Part shown: positions 1,899-4,402 of the stretch, in pieces | How positions within the stretch are numbered: position 1 is the stretch's first letter | Layout of the letters: the number at the start of each line of letters is the position of its first letter | Virus record (IMG/VR): IMGVR_UViG_2724679293_000023 | Direction: 5' to 3' (one strand) | Source: a virus | Taxonomy: Duplodnaviria > Heunggongvirae > Uroviricota > Caudoviricetes | DNA length: 22,826 bases | The notes under the pieces: generated by a model | The model's database searches: none | Seen by the model: only the letters and a program-made list of their open reading frames with translations | Told to the model about the DNA's origin: nothing | Program-made: the position numbers and the translations under genes

Positions 1899-4402
1899 TC
1901 ATGCCGCAGTGTCTGTGCTGTTCACTTCCACCGCAATGCTGTCTATCAGTACCGGGTAAGTCGCACCTCTGGTAATGTCTGTCACATGCAGTTTATCCGC
2001 CGCAAAGGCACTGACCGGTGACTGCGTCAGCGTGAACGGTGTACCATCCTGACCATCAATAACCGGCGTCACCTGAAGGCTGTTATTCCCGGCAAAGCGG
2101 AAAGCCAGCGTATGCCATTCGTTATCAAATGCGCCAAAGCTTCCCAGTTTCAGGTTGTTTGTCGCCACTTTCGCATTGTGGTACATCACATTCAGGTCTT
2201 TTGCATCTGTCTGGATGTAGAACGCTGCCAGCAGGTTATTCCCCCCGTCTCCGGTCAGGGCAACGCCCTGTGGCAGTGAAGATACCGGCCAGTAAAACGC
2301 CATAACATACTGGTTCGCAGCCAGCGCTCCCGAAACCTTAAAGCGGCAGCGAATCTGCCCCCCTTTCTGTAACAGAGCCGCACCGTTGCCCGCGGCGTAC
2401 TCCAGCACCCAGCTGCTTTTACCGGCTTCCTTGGTCAGCTTCACTGCCTTACCTCCGGTTCCCTCCGCATCGCTGACCACTTCTGCCCTGCCGCCACTGG
2501 CTGACCATCCCTGTACTTTCAGGCTTCCCTCTGACTCGCTGGCAAGGTAAGAGAGCAGTGTTGTGACGCCTGTGGCTTCTGCACCGGAAGGCGATGACGG
2601 GCGCACCTCTGATACTGTCGATGATGCCCCCGCGTTTAGCGCCACTCTTCCCGCATGGCGCAAAATCGCCGTTGCCAGACGGTCGGAAATAATCCCATTC
2701 CCAGTTTCAGGTTGTTTGTCGCCACTTTCGCATTGTGGTACATCACATTCAGGTCTTTTGCATCTGTCTGGATGTAGAACGCTGCCAGCAGGTTATTCCC
2801 CCCGTCTCCGGTCAGGGCAACGCCCTGTGGCAGTGAAGATACCGGCCAGTAAAACGCCATAACATACTGGTTCGCAGCCAGCGCTCCCGAAACCTTAAAG
2901 CGGCAGCGAATCTGCCCCCCTTTCTGTAACAGAGCCGCACCGTTGCCCGCGGCGTACTCCAGCACCCAGCTGCTTTTACCGGCTTCCTTGGTCAGCTTCA
3001 CTGCCTTACCTCCGGTTCCCTCCGCATCGCTGACCACTTCTGCCCTGCCGCCACTGGCTGACCATCCCTGTACTTTCAGGCTTCCCTCTGACTCGCTGGC
3101 AAGGTAAGAGAGCAGTGTTGTGACGCCTGTGGCTTCTGCACCGGAAGGCGATGACGGGCGCACCTCTGATACTGTCGATGATGCCCCCGCGTTTAGCGCC
3201 ACTCTTCCCGCATGGCGCAAAATCGCCGTTGCCAGACGGTCGGAAATAATCCCGCGGCGAGCCCATGAACTGAAATGGCTCGCCCTGTCCTGTGACGTCC
3301 AGGTGGCTGAGCTGTCACGCCATTTCGAACCGTAATATCCGATACCCGGAATGTCCGGGTCTTCTTCCGGTTTGTTCGTCGGCACATTCACCCCGTTCTC
3401 ATCCGTCATGAACGGTACGAAATGGATATTCTTTTCCGTTTTGTTTTTGTAGCTGCCGTACACCGTCTGGTACGAGGATTCGTTCTTCTGCTTCCAGAAA
3501 TACGTCGTGTCCCCGCATATCCAGGGAACACCGTCAGCAGAGCCACCGACGCACTGACCTGCCATATCCGCCAGGTCTGCACGGAATTTATCAACCAGCG
3601 CACCAAACTGTGCTGCGTGATTTGCCGGCGTACCGCCAAAATCAAATTCCCCCTGCATCCACACCACGGCAAACAGCACATTTTTCGGATTCTTCTTCAG
3701 TGCTGCTTTTGTTCGACCGATAAGGTCCCTATACAACGGCTTGTCCACACCCCAGCGGGTTGAATTCTCCGAGGCACCGCCAGCGTCACTGTATGTGCCA
3801 TCGGCTCCGGTGGTGAACGCTGAACCACCACGACAGCACGGAACCAGCAGAATGCCCGCATTCTCCGGTATAAACGGCAGCAGTTTTTTGGCAATATGCA
3901 GCCCCTGCCCCACGGTACCGTACTGCCCCTTTGACAGGTCCGCTTTCGGATGGTTAAGGCGGCTCATGTCCTGCACATCATGCAGACAATGGTCCGCCGG
4001 AATGATGTCGTTATATTTACAGGCGACACCGCCCGGTGTCACCGTACTGCGACGCGCCAGCTGCTTAATGCGCGGGTCCGGACGGTCATATGTCTCCGGC
4101 AGCGGAAGGCCTTCACCATATGCCATGCTGTTTGACTGCCCCGCCAGAACCACAACAAAGTAATACTCCGGGTCTCTGGTGGCGCTGATTACTGCACCTT
4201 CTCCACCTGTCGGCTTCACCACAACAGGTGTGCTCACATCACCTTCTGCGACAATCGCCTGAATAAGTGCTGCGCCATCATCCGTATACGAAGAAAACGG
4301 CCCGCCGTATGGTTGCCATCCTTCACGAATTTTTTGAGCAAGTGCATCAGCAAGGTCTGACGGCGACGCCGCCCTGACAACATCATAATGTTTAAATGTC
4401 AT
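1899..4402 (-). pseudogene. nanS-p: Prophage sialate O-acetylesterase nanS-p-like gene (DUF1737 N-terminus plus SGNH/DUF303 esterase domain), disrupted by a 557-bp tandem duplication
   Basis: ORF 2636..4402 (588 aa) carries GQSNSMAYG esterase motif and ends in a frameshifted tail; ORF 1899..2663 carries the authentic C-terminus; both share an identical 160+ aa segment. Removing one repeat copy restores a single ORF of about 648 aa. Strong SD GGGAGGAA before ATG 4400-4402. Confidence 0.8.
2141..3254. repeat. Perfect direct tandem duplication, unit about 556 bp plus 1-nt junction (copy 1 2141..2696, copy 2 2698..3253; period 557)
   Basis: The two copies read identically base for base; plus-strand shadow ORFs 2563..2862 and 3120..3335 share the same peptide, offset exactly 557 nt; 557 is not a multiple of 3. 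Confidence 0.9.

Follow-up and report, generated by a model that had tools for sequence, protein, structure and literature searches.

The 557-bp tandem duplication that appears to break a nanS-p-type gene in the window (the whole stretch of 22,826 nucleotides analysed here, IMG/VR virus record IMGVR_UViG_2724679293_000023) very probably arose in the scaffolding of a draft genome and does not exist in the bacterium itself, the true locus holding a single copy of the repeated unit and an intact esterase gene. The preliminary description had left two options, a very recent duplication or an assembly/collapse artefact. The deposited record has an N between the two copies, which favours the artefact over the duplication and points to a scaffold join across a one-N gap rather than to a collapse.

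As written in the window, the gene occupies positions 1899 to 4402 on the minus strand (2,504 nt) and contains a 556-bp unit twice, as copy 1 (2141-2696) and copy 2 (2698-3253). All 556 positions agree between the two copies, whose starts lie 557 bases apart. The copies are separated by one base only, an A at position 2697, which is directly abutted by the end of copy 1 at 2696 and by the start of copy 2 at 2698. A perfect repeat of this length lies far beyond chance. The junction reads ...GGAAATAATCCC-x-TTCCCAGTTTCAGG..., where x is the spacer at 2697, or in shorter form ...AATAATCCC-x-TTCCCAG... The repeat is absent from the output of Tandem Repeats Finder, because the program's longest period is 500. 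Hence, the earlier observation of two identical 556-bp copies lying one base apart inside nanS-p is correct.

The window was traced to contig CDLB01000032.1 (71,967 bp) of assembly GCA_900000205.1 (locus L013), to which it corresponds from record position 74 onwards; the scaffold ends 73 bp beyond the start of the window. Comparison of the window with this record revealed a single difference in 10,998 bases, namely the A at position 2697, which is an N in the record. No other N occurs in the 11,071 bases of the record that were retrieved. A gap character thus sits at the junction, as an artefact would leave it, and in the place where a real duplication should have a defined junction supported by the data the record has an N. 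The N implies that the spacer is a one-base placeholder for a scaffold gap, and that two contigs with overlapping ends were joined here, each copy being one of these ends. Copy 1, which ends right before the N, is then the 3' end of a short contig of 2,769 bp (record positions 1-2769 of CDLB01000032.1) on which the lysis cassette lies together with the C-terminal portion of nanS-p. Copy 2, which starts right after the N, is the 5' end of a large contig with the remainder of the prophage at the yebY site.

The source strain is E. coli O26:H11 21765, a human isolate of an outbreak in France (2005) linked to raw-milk cheese, and it was sequenced with MiSeq 2x300-bp reads from 700-bp inserts (PMC4335332). 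Assemblies by SPAdes 3.0.0, Minia, Velvet and MaSuRCA were merged with CISA, which resulted in a draft of 102 contigs (PMC4335332). GCA_900000205.1 is therefore a short-read draft produced by scaffolding or merging software, the kind of source from which such an artefact would be expected. A pipeline with several assemblers offers several steps at which overlapping ends might be linked without being merged. The public annotation of GCA_900000205.1 contains the same error, with genes of 588 and 235 aa at this locus. An exact search with the lysozyme encoded nearby led us to the corresponding stretch of CDLB01000032.1, where a DUF6645 fragment comes after a gene of 588 aa. When the 588-aa product itself was looked up by exact match, no such protein was on record, though the source contig carries a gene call of 588 aa.

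Removal of positions 2141-2697 restores an open reading frame of 1,947 nt, encoding 648 aa. In the Pfam search, this collapsed protein contained DUF1737 (PF08410, residues 3-53, E = 1.4e-11), SASA (PF03629, residues 83-278, E = 1.5e-11) and DUF6645 (PF20350, residues 492-610, E = 9.7e-75). It thereby has the three-part architecture of NanS-p, in which DUF1737 is followed by a SASA/SGNH esterase domain and a C-terminal lectin-like domain. Furthermore, the C-terminal domain of NanS-p (PDB 6yp6) matched residues 426-643 (E = 2e-140), and the chromosomal NanS/YjhS (PDB 3pt5) matched residues 74-396 (E = 7e-118). The gene lies in the late region of a lambdoid prophage that is integrated beside yebY/copD. 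Upstream are genes for ORF6N and a DUF1133 antiterminator-like protein of the late-regulatory region, and downstream follows the lysis cassette with DUF1378, DUF826, a class II holin, lysozyme and Rz. Judged from these sequence matches, the gene encodes a predicted prophage sialate O-acetylesterase of the nanS-p type, in agreement with its earlier identification.

Since 557 is not a multiple of three, the repeat leads to the calling of two open reading frames, of 588 and 254 aa, and the split had been described in these terms before. The artefactual 588-aa frame (2636 to 4402, minus strand) consists of 568 native residues and a frameshifted tail of 20 residues. It retains the whole SASA catalytic domain, the loss being limited to 80 residues at the end of the C-terminal lectin-like domain. 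The artefactual 254-aa frame (1899 to 2663, minus strand) has a mechanical TTG start, runs in the native C-terminal frame and holds a complete DUF6645. The preliminary description had further considered the esterase non-functional as encoded whichever origin applied. This does not hold for the organism, as the 648-aa frame obtained by removal of one copy is intact and is identical to WP_096071288.1 of E. coli 7_33_46A except at one residue (V126A). What the locus holds is a nanS-p gene of the ordinary kind in a lambdoid prophage without stx, and this gene is most likely intact.

The boundaries of the unit were compared with other nanS-p alleles. WP_000142980.1 of E. coli E2863 (L003) was 98.4% identical to the collapsed allele, with 31 mismatches and 30 exact runs. 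The longest of these exact runs corresponds to window positions 2698-3253, which is the duplicated unit to the base. The differences that flank this run are C/G at position 2140, immediately left of the unit, and G/A at position 3254, immediately right of it. Both sites vary among the loci compared. Site 2140 is a C in the window, L001, L004, L006, L008 and L010, and a G in L002, L003, L009, L011, L012, L022 and L025. Site 3254 is a G in the window and L001, and an A in L002, L003, L004, L006, L008, L010 and L025. The unit itself is present with 0-3 mismatches in most of the fetched nanS-p alleles. Hence, as an artefact would have it, the unit is a genomic repeat that ends where its copies diverge, the paralogs compared being those of genomes other than strain 21765. 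Among five tabulated alleles 53 of the 1,947 sites were variable (about 3%), and two independent coincidences of this kind at the boundaries would therefore be expected by chance about once in a thousand. A duplication in the organism would have no cause to start and end at sites that distinguish paralogs, whereas an assembler that extends a contig through a stretch common to several gene copies would have cause to stop where they diverge. We had also considered the A at the spacer as a base copied from a paralog, as many alleles have an A right after the unit. This idea was dropped because the record has an N; the match is a coincidence of the conversion of N to A.

We searched 5,426 complete E. 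coli genomes with a query of 2,701 bp, and 1,933 of them had matches. The nanS-p gene was present in multiple copies; the genomes had a median of 2 matching places, and the highest number in one genome was 15. All of the 30 best matches listed, except H1, had a span of about 2,143 bp against the 2,701 bp of the query, which indicates one copy of the unit. In H1 the span was longer because of an insertion of IS903B, yet here too the unit was present once. Every related locus inspected had a single copy of the 556-bp unit. The comparison with intact nanS-p alleles that had been proposed as a check thus supports the artefact and argues against a duplication.

Junction searches gave the same picture. 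A query of 121 bp centred on the junction matched only as two separate halves 557 bp apart, and at an E-value limit that could be passed by a contiguous match only, the contiguous 121-bp junction was found in none of the 5,426 complete E. coli genomes or the INPHARED phages. Moreover, an exact 39-mer across the junction had no match in the JGI metagenomes, in IMG/VR or among the GTDB representative genomes. A real duplication might have been seen again in independently assembled genomes of related strains, yet those searched lacked the junction. Its absence elsewhere fits a private mutation as well as an artefact, and is therefore not decisive on its own.

The artefact may have arisen as follows. 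In STEC genomes, each of several lambdoid prophages probably has a nanS-p copy of its own, and strain 21765 would accordingly have further nanS-p copies that differ at positions 2140 and 3254. Assembly from both sides would have run through the exactly shared 556 bp and halted at the first discordant base, leaving two contigs with an identical 556-bp end. In a scaffolding or merging step these contigs would then have been linked by read pairs, with a computed gap of zero or less, the overlap left unmerged and a single N written. Finally, preparation of the window would have turned this N into an A. The true locus of the strain would accordingly have one copy of the unit and an intact NanS-p esterase of 648 aa.

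A variant of the artefact explanation, and compatible with it, is that the two contigs are not neighbours. The 2.77-kb left contig would then come from a different prophage, its sole link to the prophage at the yebY site being the 556 bp that both contigs have in common, such that the window would be a chimera and the collapsed gene a hybrid of two paralogs. We consider this unlikely, though it has several points in its favour. The left contig is short and bounded by the repeat, and the scaffold ends 73 bp past the start of the window. Window positions 1-2696 are 99.93% identical (2 mismatches) to a prophage of GCA_036872115.1 (L010) that has a different early region, whereas positions 1-1856 are merely 93-96% identical to 7_33_46A. 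Conversely, positions 2698-22826 align without gaps to the 7_33_46A prophage with 99.97% identity, and are merely 98.6% identical to L010. However, lambdoid prophages are naturally mosaic, and the drop in identity with 7_33_46A starts near position 1856, about 285 bp left of the unit, and not at the join. Furthermore, L015, L016, L019 and L021 align collinearly with the collapsed window from 460 to 8288 (98.3% identity), and these complete genomes imply that the gene order occurs naturally. A repeat of 556 bp could also be bridged by the 700-bp inserts. A recombination or mosaic breakpoint at the duplication was likewise rejected: the drop near 1856 rather than at 2140 lends no support to a real event at the join.

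A real, very recent and private 557-bp tandem duplication in strain 21765 that frameshifts nanS-p, with the N as an uncalled junction base, is highly improbable. It would leave one nanS-p paralog as a catalytic fragment with a truncated lectin domain, next to a separate open reading frame for a complete lectin domain. The perfect identity and tandem arrangement of the copies would agree with it, and the N might be an ambiguous call that, if G or C, would give an exact 557-bp head-to-tail tandem. Read pairs from 700-bp inserts could in principle support two copies. Natural inactivation of nanS-p also exists: in strain F2_407_2_2 (L005 3404-4372, NZ_CP074756.1) the orthologous gene is split by IS903B. 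However, a real duplication would require the sole uncalled base in 11 kb to fall exactly on the junction, and both ends of the unit to coincide to the base with the maximal exact repeat common to paralogous alleles, while no other assembly searched contains the junction. Real tandem repeats longer than a read are usually collapsed by short-read assemblers, which also argues against it. Moreover, the ends of the unit have no microhomology able to explain a slipped-strand duplication with a period of 557. Slippage mediated by microhomology was rejected for this reason, as the TCCC motifs near both ends would result in a period of 551, not 557.

Besides the repeat, the scaffolding artefact being our preferred explanation for it, several other features of the prophage and its relatives were observed. 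Over 20 kb the window departs from 7_33_46A only in six clustered substitutions at positions 4019-4070, and in these it matches the other nanS-p alleles, which leaves 7_33_46A as the deviant. The patch thus resembles a short tract of gene conversion between paralogs. In the stretch of the 7_33_46A prophage compared with window positions 1-1856 (L001 1001-3970), an extra insert of about 1.1 kb, with two hypothetical genes, lies between holin and lysozyme. The collinear genomes L015, L016, L019 and L021 (CP088028, CP088064, CP088036 and CP088030) are near-identical and 5.55 Mb in size, and at the orthologous place in these four (about 7600-10350) no nanS-p gene has been called. Indels appeared in the ungapped comparison and several small neighbouring genes were likewise uncalled, which suggests indel errors in the assemblies rather than real decay of nanS-p.

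Just upstream of nanS-p, Rfam matches were found to AgvB (4550-4611, plus strand) and STnc100 (4612-4805, minus strand). A partial tRNA-like match (4892-4951, minus strand, 37 bits) had no ARAGORN call; RefSeq has a tRNA-Met at the equivalent position in relatives. Further Rfam matches, at 5726-5927, 8096-8269, 15431-15482, 20480-20658 and 22220-22364, comprise a C4 antisense RNA with its targets and isrK, sok (adjoining hokD), DicF, and RalA, the RalR antitoxin. The SraC/RyeA-SdsR/RyeB pair is located between the integrase gene and the chromosomal yebY. In the early-to-late region of the prophage, an accessory module of three genes (8499-10492, minus strand) encodes a protein of 388 aa, which RefSeq lists as ATP-binding in relatives, a STAS-like protein with DUF4325 and a protein of 172 aa. 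PADLOC matched none of the three and Pfam matched DUF4325 only; the module could be an uncharacterised defence or regulatory module. Tandem Repeats Finder gave a single array in the window, 3.1 copies of a 21-nt unit (18015-18080), and this array lies in a RecE-family open reading frame of 671 aa (16497-18512, plus strand) whose counterpart in the closest relative has been annotated as a truncated pseudogene.

For the biology of the locus, the apparent duplication is of little consequence. Its wider relevance concerns the reading of draft genomes. Because the N is rendered as A in the window, one-base scaffold gaps become invisible. Such hidden gaps can mimic perfect tandem duplications, frameshifts and pseudogenes, chiefly in multi-copy prophage genes of draft assemblies. 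If the conversion of N to A is general, scaffold gaps may be similarly concealed in further windows taken from draft assemblies. Comparative studies could furthermore count too many nanS-p alleles as 'disrupted' through the annotation error at this locus.

The locus can be compared with three known systems. Real intragenic tandem duplications in bacteria, which arise by slipped misalignment at short repeats, are likewise head-to-tail and perfectly identical. Here, however, the ends lack microhomology and coincide with paralog SNPs, and there is neither a defined junction base nor a second occurrence. Scaffold or contig-merge joins with a negative gap also produce two perfect head-to-tail copies, with a single N between them in the record. 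As in such joins, the unit is a repeat of a gene family and is single-copy in relatives; unlike in the usual case, the N appears as A in the window, which hides the tell-tale sign. The NanS-p proteins of Stx and other lambdoid phages, such as 933W and phi24B (vb_24B_21), are 9-O-acetyl sialate esterases, and the product of the collapsed gene has their three-part domain architecture. It likewise lies between the late antiterminator region and the lysis cassette, and its product of 648 aa falls within the 636-657 aa of published nanS-p products (PMC10462455). Whereas nanS-p of Stx phages is found downstream of stx, the gene described here belongs to a non-Stx prophage at the yebY/copD site, and in the window the artefact divides its sequence.
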